This document shows, one piece after another, positions 338-25,663 of a stretch of DNA of 25,663 bases (position 1 is the stretch's first letter; every line of letters begins with the position of its first letter). The position numbers were made by a program, and so were the translations under genes. Where the stretch lies: IMG/VR virus record IMGVR_UViG_3300032315_000486. One strand, written 5' to 3'. The notes below the pieces were generated by a model, which was not told where the DNA came from, did not search any database, and was given only the letters and a program-made list of their open reading frames with translations. Source of the stretch: a virus (Duplodnaviria; Heunggongvirae; Uroviricota; Caudoviricetes).

Positions 338-339
338 TG

Positions 340-2173: not shown

Positions 2174-2174
2174 A

Positions 2175-4548: not shown

Positions 4549-4731
4549 TCATATTCCAAGGACAGAGGCAACCAAGCCGACAGCCGACACGGCGATCATA
4601 GCAACCACAAGGAGAGTCAGAACGAGATCCTGCCGATTCCCGCTGTTAATCAAAGCATTGCGCTCTTTCTTGCGCAGGTAGGTTTCGCTGCGCTGGATCG
4701 AGGCACGTTGGACGGCGTCATAGGTCTGCAT
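4549..4731 (-). CDS. 60-aa protein with C-terminal TM segment
   Basis: AGGAG RBS; hydrophobic LVLTLLVVAMIAVSAVGLVASVLGI. Confidence 0.75.
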   Translation of the reverse strand: MQTYDAVQRASIQRSETYLRKKERNALINSGNRQDLVLTLLVVAMIAVSAVGLVASVLGI

Positions 4732-4867
4732 GGTGATCTCCTTTTCTGTTATCTAACCTTAGTGCGATTCGCTTGGCGTGTCTACGGCTAAAAAACTGTG
4801 TGTTATCAAGCAGTTAGCCTCGGCGGCGGCCCCCTTGCTAACTCATTGATTAGCAAGGGTTTTCCGG

Positions 4868-5053
4868 TCACTCAGTTGCCATGTCCATCTCACACGTCAG
4901 CGCGAAGTCATTGACGTTGAACGTCTTTTCCAGCAAGATCTGCTGTTCCTCGATTCGAACGGCGCAAGACTCGGCTGTCATACCAGTTTCAATGGCATAA
5001 AACATATCAGGTGAATTGAATCCAAACACTGTGAGGATGAGAGCGAAGGGCAT
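4868..5053 (-). CDS. 61-aa hypothetical protein
   Basis: AAGGA RBS; operon-like with 5065..5250. Confidence 0.65.
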   Translation of the reverse strand: MPFALILTVFGFNSPDMFYAIETGMTAESCAVRIEEQQILLEKTFNVNDFALTCEMDMATE

Positions 5054-5064
5054 TTCTTGATTCC

Positions 5065-5250
5065 TTATTTGAGGTCGGCATTAGCATATAATGCGTCGAC
5101 ATATTTAGCGATTGCGGCTTGGCGGATCGGATCTTTTGCATTATCTGCAAGGCGCTTTTGATTTCTGCAATGTGCCATGCAATACTTAAAATGAAAGATA
5201 AAGTAAACCAATCCATCTGCGCGGATTGCGTCTAAAATATGTTGCTTCAT
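5065..5250 (-). CDS. 61-aa hypothetical protein
   Basis: AAGGA RBS 8 nt before ATG. Confidence 0.65.
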   Translation of the reverse strand: MKQHILDAIRADGLVYFIFHFKYCMAHCRNQKRLADNAKDPIRQAAIAKYVDALYANADLK

Positions 5251-5265
5251 TTTAGGATTCCTTTT

Positions 5266-5308
5266 CGGTTTCAGACTGGTCGGTTTCAGACTGATCGGTT
5301 TCAGACTG
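5266..5308. repeat. Three 15-bp tandem units CGGTTTCAGACTG(GT/AT)
   Basis: Units start at 5266, 5281, 5296. Confidence 0.9.
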
Positions 5309-5319
5309 TGACCTGGCCG

Positions 5320-5484
5320 TTAGGCCAGATCCTCCCGTTCGTCGATTTCGGCTTTCACTTCCTCGACCGAGTCGGCGTTGACCTGCCAGTCGTGCGACTC
5401 GCCGTCGAAGCGGTCGTCATGGGTGGCGACGAAGCCGACGTAAGCGGCGGTGATGGTCCAACCTTTGTAAGCGATGCGGGTCAT
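5320..5484 (-). CDS. 54-aa acidic hypothetical protein (MTRIAYKGWTI...)
   Basis: AAGGAG RBS before ATG at 5484; promoter at 5519-5547. Confidence 0.75.
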   Translation of the reverse strand: MTRIAYKGWTITAAYVGFVATHDDRFDGESHDWQVNADSVEEVKAEIDEREDLA

Positions 5485-5663
5485 GAGAAGCTCCTTGTCT
5501 CTCTCGTTTCGATGATTCTTTATCGCACGCCCCGCCGTGATTCGCAAGACCTTTGTTCAAATATCTTTTCACGCTAGACCCCGATTTCGCTTGACAAGGT
5601 TAGCGAATCGCTATAAAATCGGCGCCTGATTCGGCGAATCGCCCAGTCGGCGCGTCCTACCTC

Positions 5664-5693
5664 ATTATAGCATGGCGAATCACCTGCTGTCAA
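5664..5693 (-). promoter_or_regulatory. Leftward TTGACA-N18-TATAAT promoter with GATTC in the spacer
   Basis: Direct consensus match; no adjacent ORF. Confidence 0.55.
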
Positions 5694-5763
5694 GGGGAAC
5701 AAAACGTGAACACGGACGGCAAAGAAAAGGCGGGCAAGCTGCCCGCCCCGCCTAGGCGCTGGC

Positions 5764-6009
5764 TTAGGCCAGCACGCCGATCCGATCAAGGAAAGCCGGA
5801 TCCACCTCGAGGGTCGCGGGAATGCCGACCCGCTCACCATCCTGCGCGGTTTGGATCCGGCGACCCGCGCAATCCGACTCGCGCACGCGACCCAGTTTCT
5901 TGCGCGGGAACCAAATCGGCTTGACGCCTGCGACGCCTGCATCGGCTTGACGCACGAAAGCAATGGCGGCTTCAGTTTCGCGAACAATGTATCCGGTCAG
6001 GTTCAGCAT
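5764..6009 (-). CDS. 81-aa hypothetical protein, paralog of 4136..4381
   Basis: Motifs shared with 4136..4381; GGAG RBS; leftward promoter with -35 at 6082-6087. Confidence 0.8.
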   Translation of the reverse strand: MLNLTGYIVRETEAAIAFVRQADAGVAGVKPIWFPRKKLGRVRESDCAGRRIQTAQDGERVGIPATLEVDPAFLDRIGVLA

Positions 6010-6161
6010 GGCAGTTCTCCGATTCGCGGGCTTGGCGTCTTGCCTTCCCTATGCCTATACAATGCACGAATCCGCCGCGCCTTGCAAGCGGAATCTTTCG
6101 CTTGCCATGCCGGATCGCATGGCGTATAAAGTAAGGGTAGGCAACAAAGGAAACCCGAATC

Positions 6162-6539
6162 ATGGCCAAGGCTCGCATCTCTGACAAGGTTAAACTGGCG
6201 GTCCGCGCATCCTACGCGGGTTGCGTGTGCTGCGGAACCTATGACGCTTTCGACACGGGCCACATGATTGCCGAGTCGCGCGGCGGGTCGCTTGACCTGT
6301 CCAACCTGCGGTTGATGTGCGATCGCTGCAATGGGGCCATCCGCAATGCGAATTGCCAATTCGCCCGCTACGCGACCCCGAACGATGGCGCTCGCGCCGT
6401 AGTAGAAACTAATCGCGCCGCGTGGTTTGCTTATTGCGATTTGGAAATCCGGTATTGGGATGCAGAGGATCGGGTTATTAAGGGAAAGGCAAAACAGAAT
6501 CCTTATAAGCGGCCCGCGCCTTTTAGCGCGCCGCTCTAA
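6162..6539 (+). CDS. HNH-like protein, 125 aa, possibly degenerate active site
   Basis: CVCC...DTGHMI..RGG...NLRLMCDRCN; AAGGA RBS; TTGCCA-N17-TATAAA promoter at 6102-6130. Confidence 0.8.
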   Translation: MAKARISDKVKLAVRASYAGCVCCGTYDAFDTGHMIAESRGGSLDLSNLRLMCDRCNGAIRNANCQFARYATPNDGARAVVETNRAAWFAYCDLEIRYWDAEDRVIKGKAKQNPYKRPAPFSAPL

Positions 6540-6543
6540 TTAG

Positions 6544-6980
6544 ATTAAGGCGGGGGCAGTATTGCCCTCGCTTAATAGGGGGGCGGATATTAGGGCAGTT
6601 ATCGGGGCAGTTATAAGGGCAGTTAACAATTTGATTAGCTTAAAATCATGCTAGATTTTAATCTATTACAACCTAGGGCGGTTCTTAGGACTTGCTGATT
6701 CGGTGATTCGCGGGGCCCTTCGCCACGAAAACCATCAGGTATTTTTTCAAACTTTCCCAGAACGCCGTTGAACTCCGTTCAAACCGATACCGACCCGTTC
6801 AAACCGATACAACCTTACCTAGACTTGATGTCAATTTCGTTTCGTCAAAATCCGACGACCAAGTGACACAAGAAATTCTAGGATTCATCCCAGCCGCCTG
6901 CGCACAGGTTTCAACCTGTTTAACTCGTCTCACAACTGTCTCACACCCTCTCACAACCGCTCACACCCGCTCTTCGGGTG
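6544..6980. repeat. Non-coding repeat cluster: hairpin 6544-6576; GGGCAGTTA x3 (6593, 6605, 6617); CCGTTCAAACCGATAC x2 (6775, 6795); CTCACA x4 (6929, 6940, 6950, 6960); hairpins 6904-6919 and 6963-6980
   Basis: Read directly from sequence. Confidence 0.85.
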
Positions 6981-7006
6981 TCAAACTAAATTTAAAAAAA
7001 AGAAGT

Positions 7007-8954: not shown

Positions 8955-10700
8955 ATGGCAACATTAAAAGATTTTGTAGTTAATCGCGGGCTGGTAGTAA
9001 ACACTCAGGCAATCATCAACGGAGTTGATGTTCTAGCTAATGATGGCGTAACACTGCTTAGTGCCTACGCCAACGACGTGGCTACCCTAAACACACTACG
9101 AGCTAACGATTTTAACTCATTCACAACTCTGAACGGTAGAATCAACACTGTTCAAGATAACGTGGGGTCCCTCGTAGCTAATTACTCAGCTAATGACTAT
9201 GTGACATGGCTGGCAGCTATGGCCAACGACTTCTCAACCTATACCACTCTGAATGGTCAAATCAACACTGTTCAGAACAACGTAGGTTCTATCGTAGCTA
9301 ACTACTCAGCTAACGATTATGTGACATGGTTGGCTGCTCAGGCTAATGACGGAGTAACACTAGCTTCCGCTCGTGCAAACGACTATTCGACATATACCAC
9401 ACTAGTTTCCGCATATCAGTCAAATGATTATGCTACACTGCTCAGCGCTTATGCAAATGATGTTTCGACTCTTAATACGGCTCGTGCAAACGATTATGCA
9501 ACTCTACTCGCAGCACAAGCCAATGATGGCGTAACCCTACTTAACGCACGCTCAAACGACTACTCAACTTACACCACTCTGGTAAATGAGTACCAGGCTA
9601 ACGACAGTGCTACATATAACACACTGTTAAACGGATATCGCGCTAACGACTATGCCACTTGGAACGGTCTAAACTCGTACACAAACATCAAGGCTAACTC
9701 AGATGTTAATGTTATAGCAGGTAGTGGTCTTAGCGGTGGCGGAGCTTTAACGGGCAACGTAACTCTATCAGTAGACTCTACTGTTGTACGTACCACAGGT
9801 GCTCAAAATATTGGCGGGTTGAAAACTTTTACAGACAGCGTAGTTATATCGGGTGATCTTACTGTTGAAGGCAACACTACTACAATTGGTACTACTTCGC
9901 TTCTAGTTGAAGACAAGTTTATCGAGCTAGCCTCTAATACAACTGGCGTTCCTAGTGGAGACGTAGGTATCTATCTGAACCGCGGAAACGAAGGTAACTC
10001 TGCAATCTACTATGATCAGAGTGAAGGATACTTTGCTCTAGTTAACACTCTTGATCCTGCAACAAACACTGTGGTGAGTCCTACTAGCTATGCTGCTCTT
10101 CGCATTGGAACTCTAATAGTGTCCAACACTCAAGTGGTCACAAATCTTAACGCTGATCAACTAGACGGCCAAAGCGGTTCCTACTATCTAGATTTTGGAA
10201 ACCTAACAAACACTGGTGTTATAACTCTAGATCGTGTGTTAGCTAATGGAAACTCATCTTCGCACTCAATCAGCGTTGGTGGGCTAACAGTAGACGCTAA
10301 CACATTCCATGTGGACTCAACTAACAACTTTGTAGGTGTTCGCACTCTAACTCCACTAGCTCCGCTACAAGTAGAAGCTGTTGGTTTTGATACCAGCTTC
10401 CTTGCAACTACCACAACAACCTCCAACCAGGTGTTAGATTCGTTTGCAGCCGCATCCTTTAGAACTGCTAAATATACCATCCAAGTTCACGATACAGCCA
10501 ACAACTACTACCACTCTTGCGAGATCTTGCTGATCCATGACGGTGCTACTGTGTACATGACTGAGTATGCTATTGTGTTTACAAGCGTATCTCTGGCATC
10601 ATTTAACGCAGACATAAGCGGTGGAAATGTTAGACTTCTAGTAACTCCTACCAACAATACTAATAACATACGCGTTGTAAGATCAACGTTGTTAGTATAA
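8955..10700 (+). CDS. Fibre-like virion protein with ANDY coiled-coil repeats
   Basis: N-terminal KDFVVNRGLVV; many (A/S)ND repeats; GDLTVEG fibre motif; C-terminal FRTAKY domain. Confidence 0.7.
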   Translation: MATLKDFVVNRGLVVNTQAIINGVDVLANDGVTLLSAYANDVATLNTLRANDFNSFTTLNGRINTVQDNVGSLVANYSANDYVTWLAAMANDFSTYTTLNGQINTVQNNVGSIVANYSANDYVTWLAAQANDGVTLASARANDYSTYTTLVSAYQSNDYATLLSAYANDVSTLNTARANDYATLLAAQANDGVTLLNARSNDYSTYTTLVNEYQANDSATYNTLLNGYRANDYATWNGLNSYTNIKANSDVNVIAGSGLSGGGALTGNVTLSVDSTVVRTTGAQNIGGLKTFTDSVVISGDLTVEGNTTTIGTTSLLVEDKFIELASNTTGVPSGDVGIYLNRGNEGNSAIYYDQSEGYFALVNTLDPATNTVVSPTSYAALRIGTLIVSNTQVVTNLNADQLDGQSGSYYLDFGNLTNTGVITLDRVLANGNSSSHSISVGGLTVDANTFHVDSTNNFVGVRTLTPLAPLQVEAVGFDTSFLATTTTTSNQVLDSFAAASFRTAKYTIQVHDTANNYYHSCEILLIHDGATVYMTEYAIVFTSVSLASFNADISGGNVRLLVTPTNNTNNIRVVRSTLLV

Positions 10701-10727
10701 TGTCGGTCATCTAGGGATAGGGAACAG

Positions 10728-12338
10728 ATGGCAGATAAAGATTTTAGAGTCAAGCTAGGCTTGCACGTAGGCGCTAACGCTTACATAGAAGGAAATATAA
10801 CAAGCGTAGATCTTGTTCAAATGAACGTAGCCTCGCCAGCGACTGTTGGCGGGGCTGGTCAGCTTGCATGGAATACTACCGACAGAACTCTTGACATAGG
10901 CGTGAATGCTAATACCACACTACAGGTAGGTCAAGAGCAGTACTACTATGTTCGTAATCATACCGCAGTTACAATTCCTGATGGTACTGCGGTAATGGCT
11001 AATGGTGTTGGGGGCGCCAATAGGATACACATAGAGCCTGCTATAGCTAATGGCAGCGTACCTCCCAAGTATATACTCGGTATCACCACTGAAGAGATTG
11101 CAGCGGGGCAGACCGGTTTTGTTACATCATTTGGTAAGGTAAGAAACCTTAACACCTCTATGTTTAGTGAGGGCGACATTTTATATGCTAGTCCTAATAC
11201 TTATGGAGGTTTGTCTAACACCATCCCAATAGCTCCTAATAATATTGTTACCTTGGCTATTGTAACAAATAAAAGTGCTAGTACCGGCGAGTTATTTGTC
11301 CGTCCTATATACGGAAGTACCTTATATGAAAACGAAGATGTACACCTAGAGAGTGTATCTGACGGTCAAGCGCTAGTTTATGTTACTGCTAATGCTCGTT
11401 TTGAGAATAAAAACGTAGCTGCTGCCTCATCTAACAGTTTTACAACTATAAGCGTAAGCGGCCAAAGCAACGTTGTTGCAGACTCAAGCACCGACACTTT
11501 AACTCTGGCTGCTGGTACAGGCATTTCACTAACTACTGATGCTGCTACTGACACTATAACTATTACCAGCACTTCTAGTGGTGGAGACGCTTCTAATGCG
11601 TGGGTGAATGCAAACGACTACTCCACTCTACTGTCAGCTCGTTCAAATGATTTTAACACACTTCAGACAGCCTATGCAAATGACTATGCAACGTTATTAA
11701 CAGCGCAGGCTAATGATTTTAACACACTGCTGTCAGCGCGTTCTAATGATTATGCAACTCTGTTATCTGCGCAAGCCAATGACGGAGTTACTTTACTAAA
11801 TGCGCGTTCTAATGATTATGCAACTCTGTTATCTGCTTATGCAAATGACTTTGCACTATACTCAAGTGTGCGAAGCTTTAATGCTTTCGTAGTAGCAGGG
11901 CAAAGTGATGTGGTCGCAGACGGTTTCACTGACACTGTGACTCTGGTAGCCGGTACAGGCATTTCATTAACTACTAATGCTGCTGCTGATAGCATAACAA
12001 TCGCAAGCATAGGACCTCGACTAGTGTATCTAGCTGACTCTACTTCTATAACTGTGAACACAGATACGACGGATGTTGCTCAGCAAAATAATACTCAAGC
12101 TGTTGGAACTCTAACTGTGAATGCTCCTACAGGAACTATAACTGATTCAGAGAAATTTATTCTCAGAATAAAGAGCACTAATGTTCAGACATTCAGTTGG
12201 AATGGAGTTTTTGCAGGCTCTACAGATGGTTCGCTCCCCACTGTCACTAGCGGTGCTGGAAAAACAGACTATATGGGTTTCATGTATATGACTGCCGATA
12301 CTAAATGGCACATGATAGCCAAGAACTTTGGATTTTAA
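10728..12338 (+). CDS. Fibre-like virion protein with ANDY repeats between duplicated beta segments
   Basis: N-terminal KDFRVKLGLHV; two copies of GQS.VVAD..TDT.TL.AGTGISLTT; ANDYATLLSA repeats. Confidence 0.7.
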   Translation: MADKDFRVKLGLHVGANAYIEGNITSVDLVQMNVASPATVGGAGQLAWNTTDRTLDIGVNANTTLQVGQEQYYYVRNHTAVTIPDGTAVMANGVGGANRIHIEPAIANGSVPPKYILGITTEEIAAGQTGFVTSFGKVRNLNTSMFSEGDILYASPNTYGGLSNTIPIAPNNIVTLAIVTNKSASTGELFVRPIYGSTLYENEDVHLESVSDGQALVYVTANARFENKNVAAASSNSFTTISVSGQSNVVADSSTDTLTLAAGTGISLTTDAATDTITITSTSSGGDASNAWVNANDYSTLLSARSNDFNTLQTAYANDYATLLTAQANDFNTLLSARSNDYATLLSAQANDGVTLLNARSNDYATLLSAYANDFALYSSVRSFNAFVVAGQSDVVADGFTDTVTLVAGTGISLTTNAAADSITIASIGPRLVYLADSTSITVNTDTTDVAQQNNTQAVGTLTVNAPTGTITDSEKFILRIKSTNVQTFSWNGVFAGSTDGSLPTVTSGAGKTDYMGFMYMTADTKWHMIAKNFGF

Positions 12339-12349
12339 TTGAGGACACA

Positions 12350-12583
12350 ATGATAAAAATAGACTTTGAAATGACAAGTGATAACGGTGCGTGGATTTAT
12401 AGAGATGCTCTACATCTACCCGACGACCACACCTATACAGAAGCGGACATTGAAGTGATGAAGCAGGCTCGCTTTGCCAGATGGTTAGAAGTTATTACTG
12501 CTCCGCCTGTTATAGTTGAAGAAACTCCAGTAGATGTTTTACCCGATGAACCATCGGTTGAAGACATTCCTGTGCAGGAGTAA
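12350..12583 (+). CDS. 77-aa possible fibre-assembly chaperone
   Basis: GAGG RBS before ATG at 12350; small acidic gene between fibre and adhesin genes. Confidence 0.5.
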   Translation: MIKIDFEMTSDNGAWIYRDALHLPDDHTYTEADIEVMKQARFARWLEVITAPPVIVEETPVDVLPDEPSVEDIPVQE

Positions 12584-12585
12584 TC

Positions 12586-15500
12586 ATGGCTGATAGATAT
12601 TGGGTAGGAGGCACTGGTACTTGGAACGCAGTCTCTACAACTAACTGGTCTACTAGTAGTGGCGGCAGCAGCGGTGCTTCAGTTCCTACCGCTGCAGATA
12701 ACGTAATTTTTGATAGCGGTAGTAATGTTGGCACTGGTGCGTTTACTGTTACAACAGGTGTTTCAACTAGACCGTGCCTAAACCTAACTATATCTGGGCT
12801 TGATGGTGCAATGACTCTTGCTGGCAGTACTGGAATAACCGTGTCTGCAAGCATGTCACTTCCAGCCGCAAATTTAAGTTGGACTAATACAGGTACTTTA
12901 ACCTTTGCTGCTACTACCTCACAAACAATAACATCAAATGCAGTCACAATCGCTTCGCCAATTACTTTTAGTGGAACTGGAGGTACATGGGCACTACAAG
13001 ATGCACTAACATCCACCGGTTCGGCAGTAACACTGAGTGCGGGTACGTTAAATTTAAATGGTTATACATTAACTTGTCCTACATTTGTTTCTAACGTATC
13101 AGTAGCGCGCACCATAGCTTACGGGTCCACGGGTATAATAAATATAACAGGTACTGGCACTGTTTGGAATACCAGTACATTAACTAACTTTAGCTACACA
13201 GGTACTAGTAACGTAAGATTGACTAATGCGGGTTCTACAGCAATTACCATAACTCCAGGTTCTGCTACCGCAGCTCAAGCACAGAACTTTGCTATAACTG
13301 CAGGTACATATGCTCTCACCATAAGTGCTGGCAGCAATATAAACAACTTAGATTTTACAGGCTTTAGCGGATCGTTTACACTTGGCGGCACAGTAACACT
13401 CTATGGCAATTTGACTCTAAGTAGTACAACAACCAGTACGCTTGTTGCTAATAGTCTTACATTTGGTGGTACGAGTGTAACCCAAACTCTTACAACTGCC
13501 GACAAGAATATTGGGTGTAGTGTTAACATCAACGGTTCCGCTAATACTGTAAGACTAGTCGGAACATTAACCCAAACCTCTACACGTGCATTCACTCTGA
13601 CAAGTGGTACCCTTGACATAAACTCACAAACAACCAGTGTGGGTATTCTTACTATTGTTACTGGCACAAAGGCAATTACTAATGGCACTATTAATGCCGT
13701 ATCCGTCACTCATACTAGTGGTGCTATTGCTGTTACCTCTACTGCCACAATAGTAACTACAGGTACTTACACGTTTACAGCTGGATCAATAGATATTGGC
13801 AATAGTGCTGTTCTATCTGTAGGTGCCTTCAGTTCTGCCAATACCGGTACTAGATCAATTTCTTATAACACTTCAGGAGAGTTGCGACTTACCGGTACTG
13901 GCACTGTGTGGGATACGGGCACAGTAACAAACTTTAGTTATACAGGTACTAGTAACATAAGATTGACTAACTCGGGCTCTACTGCTATAACTATTACTGC
14001 AGGGTCTATGTCTGCCGCTCAGGCTCAAAACTTTGCTATAACAGCTGGGACATACACACTAACTACCACAACTAGTGGTGCAATGAATAATTTAGATTTT
14101 ACAGGGTTTAGTGGCACTTACGCACAGGCAGCTACTTCTATATCTGTTTTTGGGAATTTAGTATATTCTGCTACAATGACGACGTCTACTACAGCAGGTA
14201 GTGGTTTTATAATAATGGCTGCAACTAGCGGTACTGATACTATAACTACAAACGGCATTACTGTAAACAATAACATACGATTCAATGGTGTTGGTGGCAC
14301 ATTTCAGTTAGCCGATAACTTCACTCAAGGCACTACTAGTTATTTTAATATACAAAATGGAACTGTTGACTTCAATAACGTTATTTATTCAATAGGTGTT
14401 CTAGAGTTCACCTCTGGTACTAACTCGTATATAAATTATGGCGGTACTTTAAATCCTGCTTCCGTTATTCATACCTCAGGAACTGTTAATACTGGAACTG
14501 GTGCATTAATCGTCACTACAGGTTCATATACTTTTACTGCAGGAACTCTAAACATAAACAACGGTGTCACGCTATCTGTACGTTCCTTTTCATCTGTTAA
14601 TACCAATACGCGTGTAATAGCTTTTGGCACAGGCAATATAACTACTACAGGTAGTGGAACTATGTGGAACGTGACGGCGGCTACAGGTTTTAGCTATACA
14701 GGCACTCCAACAGTACGTATAAATAATAATACTGCTACCTCTGGATCTATAAATAATACAGCAACTGCTGCCAGCGCAGTTAACTTCAATATCGTTAGTG
14801 GTACATATACTTTAACAATAAGTACTGCCGGCTCTTTTAATGATATAGACTTTACAGGGTTTGCAGGTACTATGTCATTTGGTAGTACTAACATTACTAT
14901 GTATGGTAACTTAACACTAGCGACCGGTATGACAACTACAGGTACTGCTAGTCAAACTCATATTACATGGGCACACACTACTGGAACTGAGATTATAACT
15001 TCTAATGGAATAACTTCTAATTTTGGAATTAGAGTAAACGGAACTGGTGGAACTCTAAGGTTTGCTGATACATTCAATCAGGGCTCTACTCAAGTATTCA
15101 TATTAACAGCAGGTACTTTTGATCTTAATTCGCAGTCTGTTACTGCAGGAATATTTAATATAAATACTGGTACTCATGCTATCACTAACGGCACTTTAAA
15201 TTGTGCTTCAGCCACTCATTCTAGCGGTGACTTGTCGATAGGTACTGGTTATAATGTTATTTGCTCCGGTGCTTATACATTTGTACTAGGTTCTATAACT
15301 ATAAACAATGATGTAAATTTATCAGTTGGATCGTTCAGCTCGGCCAACACCAATACTAGATCTATTGCTTTTGGTGCTGCTGGTACTATAACTACTACCG
15401 GTACTATTAACGTATGGAACGTCACCGGTGTTAGTGGATTTTCTTTTACTGGTACGAGTAAAATTATAGTAAATAATAATACTTCTACAGCCGTAAACGT

Positions 15501-17187
15501 AACTAATACTGCAACTGCGGCAAGCGCTATGAGCTTTGCTTTCATAAACGGTACATACGCTTTAAATCTAGTTTCAGGAAATAGCTTTAGAGATTTAAAT
15601 TTTACGGGGTTCACAGGTAGCATAGACTTCTCTACTAATACTCATACTATGTATGGAAATTTAACGCTAGGAAGTGGCATGACTACCAGTGCTACTGCAA
15701 ATACTAACACACTAGCTTGGGTTTCTACTAGCGGCACTCGTACTATTACTTCAAACGGAGTTACTGCAAACTTTGGTATATCTTTAAGTGGCGCGGGCCA
15801 GACTTTACAGTTGGCCGATGCCTTTATTCAAGGCTCAACACAAAGATTTTCCTACACCAATGGAACTTTTGATATGGCGGGATATTCCGCAGCCCTAGGT
15901 GTGTTTACCATTACAACAGGCACTCACGCATTGTTAAACGGTACAGCAACCTGTGCTACTGTAACTCATACTAGCGGCAACCTGGCTGTAGGATCTGGAT
16001 ACCTTCTGGCATGTAGTGGAACTTATACACTAACTAACGGAACTATAACAATCAACGACAACGTAACTTTAACAATGTTTGCATTCTCCAGCAATAACTC
16101 AAATGCAGGCAGATCTATAGCATTTGGAACGTCTGGATTAGTTGAAATAACAGGTAAAAGTACTACTGTTTGGTTGGTAAACCCGGCTGGGTTTACTTAT
16201 ACTGGAACTAGCCTAGTAAGACTTACTGCTACAGGAACTGGAACAACCACTACTATAAATCCTGGGACTGGTAGTGCTACTATTTCTTTTAATTTTGAGG
16301 TTACAGCCGGGTCCTACCCGATTACAACGCCACTAGGCGCTGGATTTAAGTCTTTAAATTTTACAGGCTACTCAGGTGCTTGGACTAATACAACAGGGGC
16401 TAACTTATACGGAGATTTAATAATCAGTAGCGGTATGACCTTTGGTGTTACTTTTGGAACTATCTCATTTAGTTCTGGTACTTACAACGCCGTACTGACT
16501 AGTAACGGAAAAAACTTTCCTAGTTCTGTAACTCTATCAAATACAGGATCTGTTACTCTAACAGATAATTATAGTGGCTCTACCAGTCTTGTTAGAGATA
16601 CTAGTGGGTCTATAGTTGCAAATGCAAATGTTAGCGCTAGTAATATTACTATTAACGGTAATGCAAATCTAGGATCTGGTATATGGAGTGTTGGCGGTTC
16701 GTGGACTACTGGAGCATCAAGCGTTATAACTCCTGGCACGTCTACTATAAGAATGGGTAGCGCATCTACAAAAACATTTGCGGGCGCCGGTAAAACCTAC
16801 TATAATCTAGAGCAGAATGATACGGGTACGCTAATTATAACAGGTTCTAACTCATTCAATGATATCACGGTAACCCCATCATTAGGGGCGTCTACAATTA
16901 CACTTACGTCGGGAACAACTCAAACTGTTACAAACTTTACTCTATCTGGTACTGCCGGTAATCTAGTAACGCTAAATAGCTCTACACCAGGCAGCCCCGC
17001 AACACTGTCAAAAAGTACAGGCACAGTTTCAGTGAGCTATCTTAACATAGTAGATTCTACTGCTACTGGCGGTGCTACTTGGCAAGCATATACCAGTAAT
17101 GGAAACGTAGATGGTGGTGGAAACTCTGGTTGGGACTTTGGAGCCATAATTGCTGCAGCCATTGGCGCTTTTTTTGCTTTCTTTTGA
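12586..17187 (+). CDS. 1533-aa Thr/Gly/Asn/Ser-rich repetitive adhesin-like virion protein
   Basis: About 250-aa internal repeats (GTGTVW..T..FSYTGT, LDFTGF.G, YGNL); predicted beta-solenoid. Confidence 0.7.
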   Translation: MADRYWVGGTGTWNAVSTTNWSTSSGGSSGASVPTAADNVIFDSGSNVGTGAFTVTTGVSTRPCLNLTISGLDGAMTLAGSTGITVSASMSLPAANLSWTNTGTLTFAATTSQTITSNAVTIASPITFSGTGGTWALQDALTSTGSAVTLSAGTLNLNGYTLTCPTFVSNVSVARTIAYGSTGIINITGTGTVWNTSTLTNFSYTGTSNVRLTNAGSTAITITPGSATAAQAQNFAITAGTYALTISAGSNINNLDFTGFSGSFTLGGTVTLYGNLTLSSTTTSTLVANSLTFGGTSVTQTLTTADKNIGCSVNINGSANTVRLVGTLTQTSTRAFTLTSGTLDINSQTTSVGILTIVTGTKAITNGTINAVSVTHTSGAIAVTSTATIVTTGTYTFTAGSIDIGNSAVLSVGAFSSANTGTRSISYNTSGELRLTGTGTVWDTGTVTNFSYTGTSNIRLTNSGSTAITITAGSMSAAQAQNFAITAGTYTLTTTTSGAMNNLDFTGFSGTYAQAATSISVFGNLVYSATMTTSTTAGSGFIIMAATSGTDTITTNGITVNNNIRFNGVGGTFQLADNFTQGTTSYFNIQNGTVDFNNVIYSIGVLEFTSGTNSYINYGGTLNPASVIHTSGTVNTGTGALIVTTGSYTFTAGTLNINNGVTLSVRSFSSVNTNTRVIAFGTGNITTTGSGTMWNVTAATGFSYTGTPTVRINNNTATSGSINNTATAASAVNFNIVSGTYTLTISTAGSFNDIDFTGFAGTMSFGSTNITMYGNLTLATGMTTTGTASQTHITWAHTTGTEIITSNGITSNFGIRVNGTGGTLRFADTFNQGSTQVFILTAGTFDLNSQSVTAGIFNINTGTHAITNGTLNCASATHSSGDLSIGTGYNVICSGAYTFVLGSITINNDVNLSVGSFSSANTNTRSIAFGAAGTITTTGTINVWNVTGVSGFSFTGTSKIIVNNNTSTAVNVTNTATAASAMSFAFINGTYALNLVSGNSFRDLNFTGFTGSIDFSTNTHTMYGNLTLGSGMTTSATANTNTLAWVSTSGTRTITSNGVTANFGISLSGAGQTLQLADAFIQGSTQRFSYTNGTFDMAGYSAALGVFTITTGTHALLNGTATCATVTHTSGNLAVGSGYLLACSGTYTLTNGTITINDNVTLTMFAFSSNNSNAGRSIAFGTSGLVEITGKSTTVWLVNPAGFTYTGTSLVRLTATGTGTTTTINPGTGSATISFNFEVTAGSYPITTPLGAGFKSLNFTGYSGAWTNTTGANLYGDLIISSGMTFGVTFGTISFSSGTYNAVLTSNGKNFPSSVTLSNTGSVTLTDNYSGSTSLVRDTSGSIVANANVSASNITINGNANLGSGIWSVGGSWTTGASSVITPGTSTIRMGSASTKTFAGAGKTYYNLEQNDTGTLIITGSNSFNDITVTPSLGASTITLTSGTTQTVTNFTLSGTAGNLVTLNSSTPGSPATLSKSTGTVSVSYLNIVDSTATGGATWQAYTSNGNVDGGGNSGWDFGAIIAAAIGAFFAFF

Positions 17188-17223
17188 TAGTAACGAGACA
17201 AGTTAAATACTATAAAATAGTGC

Positions 17224-17252
17224 TGGACATAGTGCTATAAAAATTGTAAATT
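17224..17252 (+). promoter_or_regulatory. Possible late promoter TGGACA-N17-TAAATT
   Basis: In the 100-bp gap before 17288; partial consensus. Confidence 0.4.
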
Positions 17253-17287
17253 ATATATTAGGTTATAACCTTAAATAGGAAGATAAA

Positions 17288-18160
17288 ATGACATCAAACG
17301 TATTTGTAACACCCAGAGCAGTGAGTACTATTAGTAGGGGCAGAGTAAATCACAACTCATCTCTACAAGCACTACTGCAGAATTTTTATAGTACTGCAGC
17401 ACCCGCTTCTGCATCAGTAGATTTAGAAGGAGTACTAGGTCTACAAAATGGAATGCTTTGGAGGCAGGGCGGTACCAGGCCACAAGACGGAAGACTATTT
17501 GTATATGATACTAATAGTCCTAGTCATCCGTTATATTCTGGATATACTCGTGAAGGCATATCTCATATAACGCAGAATAACTTAGCGCAAGCAACTTCGG
17601 CATTGTCTAATAATTACTTTCAGAGTGGTGAAATAGTAAGAATACGTGATGAAGATAAACTTTATCTTGTTAATGAATCTAGAACCTCGTTGATTGCAAT
17701 AGGTTCTGGAACTAGTACAGCAGCTAATATATGGCAAACTGATAATAGCTATGTATATTACACTGGTGCTTTAAATGTGGGTATAGGTACGGCTACCCCC
17801 ACTTACAAGCTTCAAGTTAGTGGTAATACTTACAGTACCGTATACTATGAGACTAGAGGTACGCTATCTGGTACTTCTGTTGCTATAAACGGTCAAACAG
17901 GTACAGTATTTACTCTAACCACTAGTGGAAATACAACATTTACATTTACCAATCCTCCAGCTTCAGGCATTGCTTATGGTTTTACATTACTAGTTACTGC
18001 TGGGGGCAGCCATTCTCTCACTTGGCCTGCTAGCGTAAGATGGAGTAGCGGGTCTCAGCCGATAGCACCTGCTACTGGAGAGACAGACATATATGTATTT
18101 TTCACTTACGACCAGGGTACTAATTGGTTTGGTTTATTAGCTGGGGAGTCTATGGCCTAA
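17288..18160 (+). CDS. 290-aa tail-fibre-like protein
   Basis: NVGIGTATP fibre motif; C-terminal LTWPASVRWSSGSQP...TDIYVFFTYDQGTNWFG domain; AGGA RBS. Confidence 0.6.
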   Translation: MTSNVFVTPRAVSTISRGRVNHNSSLQALLQNFYSTAAPASASVDLEGVLGLQNGMLWRQGGTRPQDGRLFVYDTNSPSHPLYSGYTREGISHITQNNLAQATSALSNNYFQSGEIVRIRDEDKLYLVNESRTSLIAIGSGTSTAANIWQTDNSYVYYTGALNVGIGTATPTYKLQVSGNTYSTVYYETRGTLSGTSVAINGQTGTVFTLTTSGNTTFTFTNPPASGIAYGFTLLVTAGGSHSLTWPASVRWSSGSQPIAPATGETDIYVFFTYDQGTNWFGLLAGESMA

Positions 18161-20598
18161 TGAGTGTATTAAGTAAATACATACAGTCCGCTGCAGGTAT
18201 AGGTCAGAGAAGAACTGCGAATGCTTGGAACTTAAGCACTGCAGTACCAGATTACAATGATGATGTACCATACACTGCGTGTAGTAGTTTTGGTGCCGCT
18301 TCTATACAAATTAGTAGAGACGGCACTAAGCTTTTTATAGTAAACTACTTCTCTGTTGAAGAGTATAGTTTAGGAACTCCTTGGAAGTTGGCTACTAGAA
18401 GTTATACAGCTACTAATATATTCTTGCCTAAGCTTACTGACATATACTCAGGGTCAATAAGTTCTGATGGCTTGACCTTACTACTAATTTTAACAAATAA
18501 AACCTTAGTAACCTATAGGCTAGGTACTGCATGGAACTTGTCTACTGTTCAAGAACCTACTCCTGATGCAAAGTTCGCATCCTTACCAGGAGTACTTAAT
18601 TCTATATCAGACGTAGTAATGAAACCTGATGGCACTATTTTATATGTTTTAGGGTTGGGAAGTAGATACGTTTATCAATATGCTCTTAGTACTCCTTTTG
18701 ATTTATCTACTATTTCTCTCACCTATTCAATAGATATGGCACCATACACCTCTATAACTCCTTTAGAAGGTATGGACTTTAAAACTGATGGGACTGTGCT
18801 GTATATAACTAGTCAGTCTTTTTTGGCAAGATTTCCACTAAGCACTGCATGGAATATAAGCAGCATATCAACAGGCACAACTACTTTTGGTTTCCCGCCA
18901 TCTTATACCACTAAAGGTATCAGGATGTCACCTGAGGGCAATTACTTCTATGCAATAGATGATCTTAATAATAACCTAGATCAGTATACTACAGACACTC
19001 CTTGGGTTTTTTCTTCAGCTAGTAAAACTTCTAATGTCAGTATAGCTGCAACTGCCAGCACTTCTAGAACGTTATCTTTTTCTAGCGACGGTGCTAATAT
19101 ATACGTGAGTAACGGACAAGCTAGCAGTAGCAGTATTGTACAGTACAAATTAACATCTCCATGGAACGTAAACTCTATATCGTCTACTAGCACTTTTAAC
19201 CCTAGAATAGGAATAGGAAATTATATAGGCTACGCAGGCCTAGGAGGTATTTCTTTTAACAATTCTGGAAATACTATGTATGTTGCAAGTGGAGACGAAC
19301 ATTTTATGTTTGCTTACTCGCTATCTGAATCTTGGAATGTTCAATCAGCTACGATCTCTAATACTTCCACTTCTATGCAACATCTATCTCAAATGACTAG
19401 TAATGCTGCTGGACTCGCCATAGCTAATAATGGTTTGAGTGTGTATACCGTATCTTCAGATAACATATACCAATACACAATGGGTTCTTATATGAATACA
19501 GCTTCGCTGGCGTACTCATCCAATGTTTATAATCCTAGAATTGGATTTGGAAGTTTAACTAATTTAGCTATACAAGAAGACGGCGGTGCAATATTCACTA
19601 CTATATTTAACAGTAGAATATTAGTACGACTTCCTATGAGTACCCCATTTTTACTAACTCCTTCTTCTGCTAACACTACTGCAAGCATTACAGGAGTTGA
19701 CAGGGCTGAAGGTATATTTATTAAAGGTGATAATACTCATCTATATGTTAATGATGATGTAAGCACAGTTATATCAGACATAACTTACGATTTTTCTGCC
19801 AATGCCATTAGTTTAAGTATTGCTTCGGCAGGTGCTGGCTACTTGTACTTAAATAGATACTTATCTGACGGAGAGCGCACAGCTGATTATACTGGAATAT
19901 ACTTCAAGCCTGACGGTAAGCAGGCATATTTTATGAATGGCAGTAGATATGTATTTTCGAGCACTTTTAGCAACTCTTGGAATCTAAGTTCTTTATCCGG
20001 AGGAGTAGTAAGTAACACTAGAAGTACCGGTACTACTACCAATGTTGGGTTATTTTTTAGACCCAACGGAGGCACATATTATAATATATCAGTTAGCTCT
20101 CCTTATGAATCTGTAGCTCCTTACAATGTAGCCCCTCCGTGGAGTGTATCATCTACTAGCGCCACAACTAGACAACTAACAGACGATACTAATATGGTAA
20201 AAGTAGTATTCAGTAATGACGGCACCAGAATGTTCTCCTTAGGCAAATCTAACAATAGGATATATGCTTACAACTTATCTACTGCTTGGTCAATATCTAC
20301 TGCAACTCTTAGTACCAGCTATAGTATAGGATCTAATTCTTGGACAGATATGATAATTGCAACTACAGGTAAACATATTTTTGTAAGCACTTCTACCGGT
20401 CAAATATACAGGATTACTTTGGCTACTGCTTGGGACTTAGCTACAGTGTCCAGTATGGCACTCAATTTAACACTGGCTAACACCTATTCGTCGGGTGGAG
20501 ATTTTAACATAGCAGCTATGCATATTACTCCATATGGAGATAGGCTTTTCGTAGCTGGGTCCGATAAAATGCTCGTACAGAGCTACACTATAACTTAA
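18160..20598 (+). CDS. 812-aa multi-blade beta-propeller protein, candidate receptor-binding protein
   Basis: Recurrent Y.L.TAW.(L/I)S(T/S) units; start coupled by TAATG overlap at 18158-18162. Confidence 0.7.
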   Translation: MSVLSKYIQSAAGIGQRRTANAWNLSTAVPDYNDDVPYTACSSFGAASIQISRDGTKLFIVNYFSVEEYSLGTPWKLATRSYTATNIFLPKLTDIYSGSISSDGLTLLLILTNKTLVTYRLGTAWNLSTVQEPTPDAKFASLPGVLNSISDVVMKPDGTILYVLGLGSRYVYQYALSTPFDLSTISLTYSIDMAPYTSITPLEGMDFKTDGTVLYITSQSFLARFPLSTAWNISSISTGTTTFGFPPSYTTKGIRMSPEGNYFYAIDDLNNNLDQYTTDTPWVFSSASKTSNVSIAATASTSRTLSFSSDGANIYVSNGQASSSSIVQYKLTSPWNVNSISSTSTFNPRIGIGNYIGYAGLGGISFNNSGNTMYVASGDEHFMFAYSLSESWNVQSATISNTSTSMQHLSQMTSNAAGLAIANNGLSVYTVSSDNIYQYTMGSYMNTASLAYSSNVYNPRIGFGSLTNLAIQEDGGAIFTTIFNSRILVRLPMSTPFLLTPSSANTTASITGVDRAEGIFIKGDNTHLYVNDDVSTVISDITYDFSANAISLSIASAGAGYLYLNRYLSDGERTADYTGIYFKPDGKQAYFMNGSRYVFSSTFSNSWNLSSLSGGVVSNTRSTGTTTNVGLFFRPNGGTYYNISVSSPYESVAPYNVAPPWSVSSTSATTRQLTDDTNMVKVVFSNDGTRMFSLGKSNNRIYAYNLSTAWSISTATLSTSYSIGSNSWTDMIIATTGKHIFVSTSTGQIYRITLATAWDLATVSSMALNLTLANTYSSGGDFNIAAMHITPYGDRLFVAGSDKMLVQSYTIT

Positions 20599-21918: not shown

Positions 21919-21947
21919 TTGACTTTGTGAATTTTTAGACTTATAAT
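21919..21947 (+). promoter_or_regulatory. Late promoter TTGACT-N17-TATAAT for HNH-portal-protease/capsid
   Basis: Same hexamers as the 7007-7035 promoter; T-tracts upstream. Confidence 0.8.
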
Positions 21948-21957
21948 AGGATAAGAA

Positions 21958-22368
21958 ATGAAAGAACCCGATAAAAAACTTACTAGACTACCTGTTAAGT
22001 GGGTACGAGACGGAATAAAGAAAAACTACAAGGATAAAGAGCCTTGTTTTATTTGCGGTGCCGAGCAAGATATAGAACTTCATCACATTTATAGCATAAG
22101 TGAGTTATGGAATAATTGGCTGCGTGTTAACAGAGTATTTATTTCGTGCGATGAAGATGTAGTTTTAAACAGAGGCAAGTTTGAACAAGACAATTTAGAT
22201 AAGCTATCTAACGATAATTTATATTCCTTGTGCAAGACACACCATTTAAAGCTACATCAAATATATGGGAAGTCGTACTCAAACTACATGGGTGAACGTG
22301 TAAGAGAGTGGATTTATAAACAACGAGATAAGTACGGAGATGAGCAACAATGGCAAGAGGACCTATAA
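21958..22368 (+). CDS. HNH nicking endonuclease in T5-like position between terL and portal
   Basis: VRDGIK..Y...CFICG...ELHH...LCKTHHLKLH. Confidence 0.8.
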   Translation: MKEPDKKLTRLPVKWVRDGIKKNYKDKEPCFICGAEQDIELHHIYSISELWNNWLRVNRVFISCDEDVVLNRGKFEQDNLDKLSNDNLYSLCKTHHLKLHQIYGKSYSNYMGERVREWIYKQRDKYGDEQQWQEDL

Positions 22369-23600
22369 ATTGGTTAGTAGAGAAGCTTAATCCTGCACAA
22401 CCGCAGATTCACACTCGTCAGCCTTTTGCTAGCCCACAAACTAACGTAGATTACAGAGCTGCATATGATCAAATAGAGGTTATACATCGCGCTGTAGAAA
22501 TGATAGTAAGTGCTTGTGTAGAAGTGCCTTTTGATATTACTAACGGCGGACCGGCTAAAAAACTTAATAAGCTTTTAAATGATAGACCAAACCCATTTGA
22601 AGACAGAATAAAACTATTTAGAAGAGCTTATTTTGATTTAATAATTGACGGAAACGCATTCTTCTATTATGACGGAACTAACTTATATGTACTTCCAGCT
22701 AACGACGTACAGATAATAACAGATCCAAAAACTTTTATTAAAGGTTATCTTTTCTTAGTAACCTCAAACTATTCTAGTTATGCTACCGGCTCTAGAGACA
22801 GTAAGAATCAGAGTTCTATTGAATTTAGCGCGGAAGAAATCATTCACATTAAGATGGATAATGATGAAAGCATATTTAGAGGTAAGAGCCCTATAAAGAG
22901 TTTAGATAACATAATAAATATCTATAACGCACTATTAAAGTTTCAGAAGCAGTTCTTTAAAAACAATGCAGTACCTGGAGTTGTGTTAACCACTGACTCG
23001 GTACTTAATACAAAAGTAAAAGATAGACTTCTACAGTCCTGGCGCTCTAGCTATGCCACTATGTTTGATGGTGCTAGAAGCCCTGCCATATTAGATGGCG
23101 GATTAAAAGTAGATAAGTTTAGCGATGTTAACTTTCAGAGTTTGGACTTTGAAGCAAGTATTGAGCGTTTAGAACAAGATATGGCAAAAGCCCTAGGTGT
23201 TCCATATGTTCTTATGAAAAGCGGAAATAATGCTAACATTGCTGCAAACCAAGTACTGTTTTACGAGCATACCATACTTCCAATAGTTTCTATGTTCGCT
23301 AGTGCATTTACACAATATTTTAACTCTAGCCTTATCAGACCTGACAAAACTGTAATAACTGCATTACAACCAGATCTTAGGACGCAGAGTCAATACTATG
23401 TTAGTTTAGTTAATTCTGGTATAATAACTGCTGATGAAGCAAGAGTAAAGCTTGGGTTTGCTAAAATGGACACTGCCGATACTAACACTATCAGGATGCC
23501 TCAAAACATCACAGGAAGTGCTACTAATCCATCTATTGGAGGCAGGCCTACTAATGAAGCTGTAGACGATATTCCAAACGATGCAGCTAAAGAAACTTAA
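22350..23600 (+). CDS. Portal protein (HK97 family, T5 pb7-like)
   Basis: EKLNPAQ, RPNPF, ILDGGLK, ALGVP, GNNANI, GIITADEAR. Confidence 0.93.
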   Translation: MARGPINWLVEKLNPAQPQIHTRQPFASPQTNVDYRAAYDQIEVIHRAVEMIVSACVEVPFDITNGGPAKKLNKLLNDRPNPFEDRIKLFRRAYFDLIIDGNAFFYYDGTNLYVLPANDVQIITDPKTFIKGYLFLVTSNYSSYATGSRDSKNQSSIEFSAEEIIHIKMDNDESIFRGKSPIKSLDNIINIYNALLKFQKQFFKNNAVPGVVLTTDSVLNTKVKDRLLQSWRSSYATMFDGARSPAILDGGLKVDKFSDVNFQSLDFEASIERLEQDMAKALGVPYVLMKSGNNANIAANQVLFYEHTILPIVSMFASAFTQYFNSSLIRPDKTVITALQPDLRTQSQYYVSLVNSGIITADEARVKLGFAKMDTADTNTIRMPQNITGSATNPSIGGRPTNEAVDDIPNDAAKET

Positions 23601-23610
23601 GGAGCATACA

Positions 23611-25663
23611 ATGCAAAAAACATTTTACATTGATACCGATGATTTTGCAGTCAAGGGTATTGCTGATAATAAAGCTTTAAAAATTGCTGGCTATGCTAAC
23701 ACTGCTGACAAAGATAGAACAGGTGATATAGTACTATCAAATGCGTGGGCTAAGGGTGTAGAAAACTTTAGAAGAAATCCTATTCTTCTATATCAACACG
23801 ACCACGGTAAACCTATTGGTAGAGTAAATAATATTACTGTAGATAAAAAAGGTATATTTGTAGAAGCAAGTGTGAGCGATGCCGCAGAAAAGCAACACGC
23901 AGTAAAGACACTTATAAAAGACGGAGTATTAAAAAGCTTCAGCGTAGGATTTAGAATCAAAGATGCTGACTACGATAAGAGAAGCGATACTTTTGTAATT
24001 AAGGATCTAGAACTGCTGGAAATATCTGTAGTTAGCGTACCAGCTAACCAAAATTCACTATTCTCTATTCGTAAGAGTTTTGAAAATGACGACACTTATA
24101 AAGAATTCAAAGGTCAATTTACCTCTTCAAAGGAAAAAGCCTCTAAGGTAGTTGACAATGAAGAAGAAGAGGAAGAAATCGTAACAGGTCAAGATCCTAT
24201 GAGACAGATTCCTTTTACCAATTTACTAAGCGAAGACACTAGTAAAATAACCGAGAAGACTTTTGTTATATTAGACGGTTACAGATATAAAACCTCAAGA
24301 ATAGCTACTGCAGAAAATCCTAATTTTGTATTTGAAAAATGCGATGCTTTAGGTAATACTCTGGGTGGAACTTTAGAAGTAAATGCACTAGATATTACTA
24401 TTATAAACAAGTGGGATTTAGATAGCGAATACGATTTAAGATTACTGGTTACTAAAGAAAAGACATTCTTAGACGAGGAAAAAACTCATATAATATCTAA
24501 GTTTAAGTCTCTAATAAGTAGATCAGAGATAGAATTACTTCAGCTTAAATCTGCTGAAAATATTAAAAACGATAAGAACTTACAAAAAATATTAAACGAT
24601 ACACTAAATCTTATCACACTAAACTATACTAATTGGAATGAATCTCATTTCTATTTAGCCAATAAAACTTGTATGGTTGTAGAGACTCTAAAACGCCTTC
24701 CGGTGGAGAGCAATAGAGATCTTATGCTGAATGTATATGGCCATAATATACAAAAAACTCTAGAGGAGAATAACAAAATGACTACTGAAAACGTAGGTGA
24801 TCCAATCACAATCAGCACAAAAGCTGCTTCAGCCCAGGTAGATACCAAAGCTGCTGTTGCTACTGTTGCAGAACCACGCGTTGCACAGCTAGTAGAAAAA
24901 GCCGGTGAGGCTGTTCTAAGAGCTGAGGCTGCAGAATATATAGCTGATCAAACAGGCCGCTCAGCCGATCCGCGCGTAATGGAAGAACTAGCTGAACTAA
25001 AAGGTCAGCTAAAAGCATATCGTGAGCAAGTAAATTCTATGCAAACAAGCAAGATGCACTATGCTGAAAACAATCGTTCATACGAGCAGTTCTCAGATCG
25101 CGATAAATCAAACGCTATATTCCTATCAAAAGCCCTAAACAAGCACGTATTTAATACACGCATGGGCGACCGTATGAAAGCTGTCCTAACAGACACAAAT
25201 CTAAATGAAGCTTTCAGCACAAACGTATACAACGAAATGCAACAACAACTAGTGGTTGCTCCACTATTTAACCGTGTTGAAGTAAGTTCGGGATCCTTCC
25301 GTATTCCAGTAGCTGACGAAGATACAAGCGATTTCGTTGCTCAGTTCCCATCAGGCTCATTTGCTGCTGGCGTAACTGATTTTACCACAATACCAACAAG
25401 CCGTCAGGCTCAAATTGGTGCGGTAGAACTACAACCAAAGAAATTCATGGTTGCAACTCACATTGCCAAGGACGAAGAAGAAGATACAATTCTTCCTCTA
25501 ATCGACTTCCTACGTCAAGCTGCTACTCGTCGTCTAGCACGTGGTATCGACAAAGCTATCCTACGCGGTGACGGTACTCTGAGCGCATTCAGTGCTTCTA
25601 ACCCACTAGCTGCTGCTGGTGCATTTAGATCTGTTATCAAAGGCGTTGTAGAACTAGCTGCCG
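23611..25663 (+). CDS. Prohead protease (S78/HK97-type) fused in frame to linker and major capsid protein; 3' partial; not in ORF track
   Basis: AAGGAG RBS; GYAN, YQHDHGKPIG, KSFSVGF, EISVVSVPAN; frame read manually with no stop from 23611 to window end. Confidence 0.88.
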   Translation, partial: MQKTFYIDTDDFAVKGIADNKALKIAGYANTADKDRTGDIVLSNAWAKGVENFRRNPILLYQHDHGKPIGRVNNITVDKKGIFVEASVSDAAEKQHAVKTLIKDGVLKSFSVGFRIKDADYDKRSDTFVIKDLELLEISVVSVPANQNSLFSIRKSFENDDTYKEFKGQFTSSKEKASKVVDNEEEEEEIVTGQDPMRQIPFTNLLSEDTSKITEKTFVILDGYRYKTSRIATAENPNFVFEKCDALGNTLGGTLEVNALDITIINKWDLDSEYDLRLLVTKEKTFLDEEKTHIISKFKSLISRSEIELLQLKSAENIKNDKNLQKILNDTLNLITLNYTNWNESHFYLANKTCMVVETLKRLPVESNRDLMLNVYGHNIQKTLEENNKMTTENVGDPITISTKAASAQVDTKAAVATVAEPRVAQLVEKAGEAVLRAEAAEYIADQTGRSADPRVMEELAELKGQLKAYREQVNSMQTSKMHYAENNRSYEQFSDRDKSNAIFLSKALNKHVFNTRMGDRMKAVLTDTNLNEAFSTNVYNEMQQQLVVAPLFNRVEVSSGSFRIPVADEDTSDFVAQFPSGSFAAGVTDFTTIPTSRQAQIGAVELQPKKFMVATHIAKDEEEDTILPLIDFLRQAATRRLARGIDKAILRGDGTLSAFSASNPLAAAGAFRSVIKGVVELAA
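24778..25663 (+). CDS. Major capsid protein (HK97 fold, T5 pb8-like) from an internal start; 3' partial
   Basis: GAGGAG at 24763-24768, 9 nt before ATG; FSTNVYNEMQQQLVVAPLF, DEEEDTILPLI, KAILRGDG. Confidence 0.88.
   Translation, partial: MTTENVGDPITISTKAASAQVDTKAAVATVAEPRVAQLVEKAGEAVLRAEAAEYIADQTGRSADPRVMEELAELKGQLKAYREQVNSMQTSKMHYAENNRSYEQFSDRDKSNAIFLSKALNKHVFNTRMGDRMKAVLTDTNLNEAFSTNVYNEMQQQLVVAPLFNRVEVSSGSFRIPVADEDTSDFVAQFPSGSFAAGVTDFTTIPTSRQAQIGAVELQPKKFMVATHIAKDEEEDTILPLIDFLRQAATRRLARGIDKAILRGDGTLSAFSASNPLAAAGAFRSVIKGVVELAA

Follow-up and report, generated by a model that had tools for sequence, protein, structure and literature searches.

A protease-capsid fusion gene in a clade of tailed viruses probably encodes two nested, C-terminally identical proteins

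Introduction

It is understood only in part how HK97-type proteases enter the prohead in a small, fixed number of copies. The cultured phages closest to the virus studied here are Demerecviridae such as T5, in which the portal (pb7), decoration protein (pb10), protease (pb11) and capsid protein (pb8) are encoded by separate genes. In T5-like phages the decoration gene follows the portal gene and precedes the protease gene, and a stop codon plus 17 nt lie between protease and capsid. A pb8-type capsid protein is recognized by its HK97 fold and, N-terminal to this, a coiled-coil Delta domain that carries a K/A maturation site. In the T5-like phage DT57C about 160 N-terminal capsid residues are removed on maturation (PMC10713586), and in T5 the capsid cut is performed by pb11 (PMC5292684).

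Other viruses combine these genes. In lambda C/Nu3, HSV-1 UL26/UL26.5 and HFTV1 gp17/gp17.5, an internal in-frame start yields an abundant C-terminal product, with the protease as the minority product (bioRxiv 10.64898/2026.09.13.751334). Single-gene fusions of protease and capsid have been described in Arthrobacter clusters AM, AU and AN (PMC5513430), and the families NF045541 and PHROG 617/4523 likewise hold protease and HK97-fold capsid in one ORF; such "protease-capsid fusion" annotations imply an implausible one-to-one ratio. The gp10 prohead protease of HSTV-2 and HRTV-7 (Hafunaviridae) joins a protease, an acidic spacer and a DUF3140-like bundle and ends in a stop codon, with no SH3-like barrel evident in its sequence, and bacterial DUF3140 (PF11338) proteins stand alone. 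Protease-capsid fusions and nested protease/scaffold starts are already known; what we add here is a folded cargo cassette predicted to be present only on the long product of a nested pair. Our literature search, outside which most subscription journals fell, turned up no publication that deals with DUF3140 or describes this arrangement.

Results and discussion

The protease and capsid share one reading frame across the clade

The window, by which we mean the whole stretch of 25,663 nucleotides analysed, ends at the end of a linear 78-kb viral contig that is estimated to be 50% complete. Its last genes follow the T5 order of terminase, nicking endonuclease, portal, protease and capsid, and from the promoter onwards they are arranged as follows:

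21919..21947, + strand: predicted sigma-70-type promoter, TTGACT-17-TATAAT (11/12 consensus match), heading a nicking endonuclease-portal-protease/capsid operon
21958..22368, + strand: T5-type nicking/HNH endonuclease gene (PHROG 3497 and HNH matches; orthologues with PF26848, Phage_T5_Nicking_endo)
22350..23600, + strand: portal protein gene (PF04860, E 5e-53)
23611..25663, + strand: long product with the order protease, spacer, cargo, Delta domain, capsid; incomplete here because the contig ends (about 848 aa in close relatives)

A matching promoter site was found upstream of the same operon in most relatives covering that stretch. The portal stop codon overlaps the Shine-Dalgarno sequence (SD) of the protease start (TAAGGAG at 23598-23604), and the long product starts at ATG 23611; an ATG further upstream, at 23581, is not conserved. 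As a previous sequence-only reading had reported, one stop-free frame runs from ATG 23611, here for 684 codons to 25663, and the other two frames contain 27 and 24 stops over the cargo region. About 164 C-terminal residues of the long product are missing at the contig end.

We confirmed that the protease-capsid fusion is not an assembly error. Every near IMG/VR relative spanning the region carried a single stop-free frame of about 850 codons, and a profile search recovered ten distant full-length homologues (796-1006 aa; cargo identity 26-45%), all in the same gene neighbourhood. In a wider survey, protease and capsid lay in one frame in 62/62 non-duplicate loci with a complete 5' end, although these loci are kin ranked by full-length score, so that their counts are not independent and are biased towards fused forms. 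A tree of 31 of the 62 fused loci had deep branches. A lost stop near the joint, a possibility raised by the sequence-only reading, is excluded by the relatives, all complete members of which keep the frame intact. The one database protein that resembled a free capsid, P0063, was rejected as a split relative since it lies behind a 100-N scaffold gap; a search of limited sensitivity for unfused protease-plus-cargo or stand-alone forms (213-681 aa) returned only this artefact. With the same frame present in dozens of separate assemblies from JGI, ENA, NCBI and Logan, the chance that an assembly or sequencing error hides a stop is negligible.

The joint itself was variable in sequence. The spacers that join the last cargo motif to the capsid Met came in 33 different sequences and six lengths; all are in frame and stop-free, yet 183 of their 346 codons are one change from a stop. 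Because these variable, stop-prone spacers all remain open, read-through across the joint looks to be under selection.

The clade differs from T5-like phages in having no stop between protease and capsid, no decoration gene before the protease, and 230 aa of spacer plus cargo unrelated to pb10. The separate protease and capsid genes and the decoration gene that had been described for T5 were found in a cultured T5-like phage, and in no locus of the fusion clade are portal and protease far enough apart to hold a decoration gene, which agrees with its noted absence here. Our searches found no cultured member of the clade and no locus of it in GTDB genomes, and a search of cultured phages with the cargo, the middle segment, was blank. 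Against NF045541 the protein scored 46.7, the cut-off being 525.

A second group of protease-capsid fusions (L005-L030) was also observed. These are about 660 aa long, some 200 aa shorter than those of the fusion clade, have 47-63% protease identity and carry neither cargo domain. Unlike the cargo clade, most have no strong SD plus ATG between protease and capsid (ATG only considered), and in several another 230-300 codons ahead of the protease are open.

A T5-type protease lies between candidate cleavage sites

The first part of the long product holds two features:

23656..24075, + strand: S78 prohead protease core, aa 16-155, with His63 and Ser111 and with conserved K15 and K155 at its borders (Pfam and TIGR01543)
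24076..24192, + strand: acidic, variable spacer, aa 156-194, predicted to be disordered (pLDDT <50)

The protease scored above curated cut-offs in both PF04586 (78.3 bits vs 21) and TIGR01543 (83.3 vs 59), and the Pfam S78 match at aa 19-156 (E 1e-21) matches the S78 protease of about 170 aa already read from the letters. It is 45% identical to the T5-like protease, whose short C-terminal tail is absent here after aa 177. The predicted catalytic residues H63 and S111 are invariant; their counterparts in the T5-like protease P0026 are H76 and S122, which we take to be catalytic there. K155 is present in 46/46 proteins and K15 is nearly invariant. K155 aligns with K166 of the T5-like protease, presumably its C-terminal self-cleavage site, and K523-A524, at the end of the Delta domain, aligns with K159-A160 of the T5-like capsid. 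Cuts at the predicted sites K155 and K523 would separate the protease from the cargo and release a cargo-Delta piece from the shell. We also considered a general K-[A/S] cleavage code and rejected it, as this rule was only about 1.5-fold enriched in the Delta domain.

The acidic spacer was 3-38% identical to that of distant relatives and had a mean net charge of about -16 (16 relatives, inserts included). The EEEEEE patch noticed earlier falls within it, at aa 184-189 (24160-24177).

The middle segment is predicted to form two folded domains

The segment of about 200 aa between spacer and capsid had been described as an unrecognised linker. That description did not hold: AlphaFold (AF2) returned a confident two-domain model (mean pLDDT 84.5), the full-length model being poor outside the cargo.

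24193..24447, + strand: cargo domain 1, small SH3/Tudor-like beta-barrel, aa 195-279 (AF2 pLDDT about 90 over the barrel)
24457..24747, + strand: cargo domain 2, helical bundle, divergent DUF3140-like, aa 283-379 (ESM Atlas and hhalign)

The cargo segment gave no match to Pfam or PHROG, Foldseek against the PDB found nothing at E<=0.001, and Atlas feature searches gave nothing usable. Among solved structures the best matches to the barrel were SH3/Tudor/KOW barrels at Z 4-5 only; the best (Z 5.1, rmsd 3.0 over 61 aa) was one among many barrels and is weak for assigning a family. The barrel had no profile match to the one DUF2945 (Hva1_TUDOR) protein compared. An origin of the cargo as a relocated T5 decoration protein was rejected, there being no profile match to pb10.

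The bundle superposed on an ESM Atlas DUF3140 cluster over 98 residues (rmsd 2.3, TM 0.73 by target, both being predicted models). Consistent with this, hhalign against nine bacterial DUF3140 proteins gave E 1.8e-4 and a score of 27.9, vs a maximum of 16.8 in 40 block shuffles and also well above reversed controls; with HSTV-2 added, E fell to 1.1e-5. Neither the window protein nor any of 25 aligned members reached the Pfam gathering cut-off for DUF3140 (PF11338). The top BFVD match of the cargo model was the HSTV-2 gp10 prohead protease, the tail of which itself matches DUF3140 proteins weakly, and in the ESM Atlas the model also matched further viral clusters, of protease, capsid and RimK polyproteins. 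One of these, a 1002-aa viral RimK/ATP-grasp polyprotein cluster, aligned to the cargo model over 103 aa with rmsd 2.3, which suggests that polyproteins associated with the head contain the DUF3140-like bundle repeatedly.

By their substitution rates (dN 0.07-0.14 vs dS 0.7 or saturated, in pairs with the window), both cargo domains are under purifying selection. Compared across the clade, the cassette is modular: the barrel was present in 62/62 complete loci and the bundle in 55/62, having been lost in some, and others carry a His-rich insert. This insert, observed after the protease in L059, L061, L064, L065 and L115-L146, comprises about 60-70 aa with three spaced HxH motifs; it had no Pfam match and, from its motifs, is probably metal-binding.

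We also observed, on a Streptomyces fungicidicus plasmid (L157:1032-1612), a DUF2945 (Tudor-like) gene directly before a DUF3140 gene, beside katG. The barrel-then-bundle order is the same as in the cargo, and this DUF2945 has no sequence match to the barrel.

Signals at Met390 point to an internal capsid start

The last part of the frame holds a conserved element, the Delta domain and the capsid:

24733..24768, + strand: nucleotide-level conserved element with no synonymous differences, an inverted repeat (24733-24738 / 24746-24751, 7-nt loop) followed by the SD GAGGAG (24763-24768)
24778..25179, + strand: internal start Met390 and coiled-coil Delta (scaffolding) domain, to the T5-type maturation site K523/A524 (M390 and K523 in 46/46 proteins)
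25180..25663, + strand: N-terminal half of the mature HK97-fold capsid protein, truncated (PF05065, TIGR01554)

Pfam Phage_capsid (PF05065) matched at aa 532-657, above its cut-off, and the capsid, judged from a relative's full domain, is 27-28% identical to Demerecviridae capsids. Long helices are predicted at aa 423-508 of the Delta domain. This predicted architecture, a coiled-coil Delta domain, an aligned K/A site and then the HK97 fold, is that of T5 pb8.

The GAGGAG lies 9 nt before ATG 24778 (codon 390), as had been read from the sequence. Like Met390, Glu386, whose codon gives the GAG of the SD, is present in 46/46 proteins, and GGAG precedes the junction ATG in 69/69 loci. Among all in-frame ATGs, the junction ATG had the best or second-best SD in 14/14 diverse genes. 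Codons 374-386 showed zero synonymous differences among 12 nearer sequences, making this the lowest window of the gene (gene median 0.44). Codon usage also stepped at Met390 in the window, towards a pattern typical of high expression: the share of TTC/TAC/AAC/ATC was 0.22 and 0.25 before and 0.56 after (p 4e-4), that of ATA/AGA/AGG/TTA was 0.40 and 0.56 before and 0.10 after (p 1e-6), and codons matching the phage's own 18 tRNAs rose from about 0.42 to 0.59 (p 7e-5), Leu being encoded by CTA in 18/20 cases after Met390. Most relatives showed the step clearly, but in several distant members it was faint or missing. When the change point in codon usage was fitted freely, it fell at the joint in L034, L035 and L054, and the fit was noisy or unsupported in several distant genes. 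A cluster of 18 tRNA genes was observed outside the window, at G000:C1 67933-78348, with anticodons corresponding to the codons that the capsid part favours.

A shift in codon usage of this kind within a single ORF is not expected of one polypeptide made at one rate. Together, these features strongly support, in silico, the use of Met390 as the capsid start. The invariant SD and ATG, the frozen synonymous sites and the codon-usage step also favour the earlier proposal of two co-terminal products from one gene, which we consider very probable. The opposing view, that only a long polyprotein is made, each subunit carrying protease and cargo and then being trimmed, would leave the SD and ATG as a relic. 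Databases do call this single ORF as one protein, and single-gene protease-capsid fusions have been described (PMC5513430), but an SD and Met kept across deep divergence, synonymous sites that do not vary and unlike codon usage in the two halves make this view very unlikely. If the gene is really two nested genes, as we favour, then the true capsid start is masked wherever databases call a single 850-aa protein, and the clade is an unusually clean sequence case of such a fusion gene being two nested genes.

By its sequence signals, the locus resembles the nested genes of lambda in having an in-frame internal start with its own SD, and SDs at both starts. Such nesting follows lambda/herpes logic, which limits the surprise. 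In lambda, HSV-1 and HFTV1, however, the inner product is scaffold only, whereas here it would be a scaffold-capsid precursor running through the HK97 fold, so that the protease would ride on a lattice subunit; the folded cargo domains are also interposed here, unlike in those nested genes.

The frozen stretch begins 45 nt before ATG 24778 and includes the invariant loop of the inverted repeat. The repeat would form a weak AU hairpin whose folding z-scores were not significant; an Rfam search for a conserved RNA structure at the joint was blank, and the arms of the repeat do not vary. The motif occurs once in the genome. From its position and sequence, the element could be a hairpin, a protein site or an atypical promoter. 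We therefore weighed the alternative that the ratio of the same two proteins is set by RNA, the element acting as an internal promoter or as a processing/stabilising site that yields a capsid-only transcript; the control step would differ and the products would be the same. Constraint reaching about 30 nt upstream of the SD, loop included, fits this alternative, as the SD alone offers no explanation for it, and the spacing of a CATAAT at 24742-24747 would give an ordinary leader of about 24 nt before the ATG. Yet no -35 hexamer lies 16-18 nt from the CATAAT, whereas the operon promoter is canonical, and a canonical internal sigma-70 promoter was rejected on this ground. The element is moreover kept only in the nearer subclade, distant members having the SD without the repeat, and an upstream hairpin has been reported at the nested starts of lambda and HSV-1 (bioRxiv 10.64898/2026.09.13.751334). 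Control at the RNA level is, on balance, unlikely, and we favour ribosome entry at the internal SD.

A further in-frame ATG with a strong SD was observed near the start of the acidic spacer in L059, L064, L085, L095, L096, L115, L121, L128, L131 and L146. Such an extra start occurs in about a third of sampled loci, all distant, and is absent in the window. It could give a protease-free cargo-capsid product, and Glu-rich coding also makes GGAG by chance.

A minority long chain may carry the protease into the prohead

In the model we favour, where use of both starts, their ratio, co-assembly, cleavage and cargo fate are what we infer, an abundant capsid and a minority protease-cargo-capsid chain would co-assemble and be cut inside the prohead. 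We regard this full model as probable. One late-operon gene would yield two proteins with the same C-terminus. Ribosome entry at the internal SD and ATG 24778 would give an abundant Delta-capsid precursor of about 459 aa. Initiation at 23611, probably by coupling to the stop codon of the portal gene, would give a minority chain of about 848 aa, ordered protease, acidic spacer, SH3-like barrel, DUF3140-like bundle, Delta domain and capsid. Because the long chain would join the prohead lattice via its own Delta-capsid end, protease and cargo would hang inside the prohead. The protease would then free itself at K15 and K155 and remove the Delta domains at K523, and the cargo cassette would be released, after which it would be degraded or stay on as an internal protein. 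Co-assembly as the route of protease delivery would fit both the frame kept open across the joint and the conserved T5-type cut sites. If it occurs, it would be a natural design for loading a few protein copies inside a T5-type capsid.

The long chain might instead be a precursor that cuts itself before assembly, with the protease recruited separately as in T5 and HK97. The fusion would then serve folding, timing or protease inactivity, and the cargo could be an inhibitory or docking module. The invariance of K155 is in keeping with self-cutting, as is HSTV-2, in which the protease-acidic spacer-DUF3140-like gene ends in a stop and the scaffold and capsid genes are separate, so that the cassette works without a capsid tail. 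Self-cutting leaves unexplained, however, why no complete locus has gained a stop in the variable, stop-prone joint, and the short C-terminal tail of the T5-like protease has no counterpart here. We consider it improbable, and return to co-assembly as the preferred model.

The cargo may serve the protease as a docking or inhibitory module, a role suggested by its association with proteases elsewhere; alternatively, it may be an internal protein that the head retains. A bolder and doubtful reading, though a possible one, makes the long product a cargo-loading vehicle: a few N-terminally extended capsid subunits would import the protease together with exchangeable folded modules, namely the SH3-like barrel, the DUF3140-like bundle and the His-rich module, and cuts after lysines would free internal virion proteins with a part in packaging, in ejection or in the early stage of infection. 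On this reading, DUF3140 would recur as a module of the head interior in tailed viruses of bacteria and archaea. A part predicted to belong to the long product only, with conserved, swappable folded domains, provides a first testable context for DUF3140.

Other regions of the window and contig

Several features were observed away from the head genes. Upstream of the terminase, positions 8955-20598 of the window hold large tail- or fibre-like ORFs (581, 536, 1533, 290 and 824 aa), of which the 581-aa ORF has capsid-like codon usage (0.57 C-ending), suggesting high expression. Positions 1-7000 have a GC content of 48-55% (head module, 36-40%). Short ORFs lie on both strands there, and several sigma-70-like promoters share a common downstream motif; this is possibly an early or host-takeover region. 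Two near-identical small proteins are encoded just outside the window and at its start. The rest of the contig, outside the window, holds further ORFs of 473, 357 and 476 aa, which from their N-terminal sequences presumably resemble a Ro60/TROVE-type protein, an NMN adenylyltransferase-NUDIX protein and a nicotinamide phosphoribosyltransferase, respectively.
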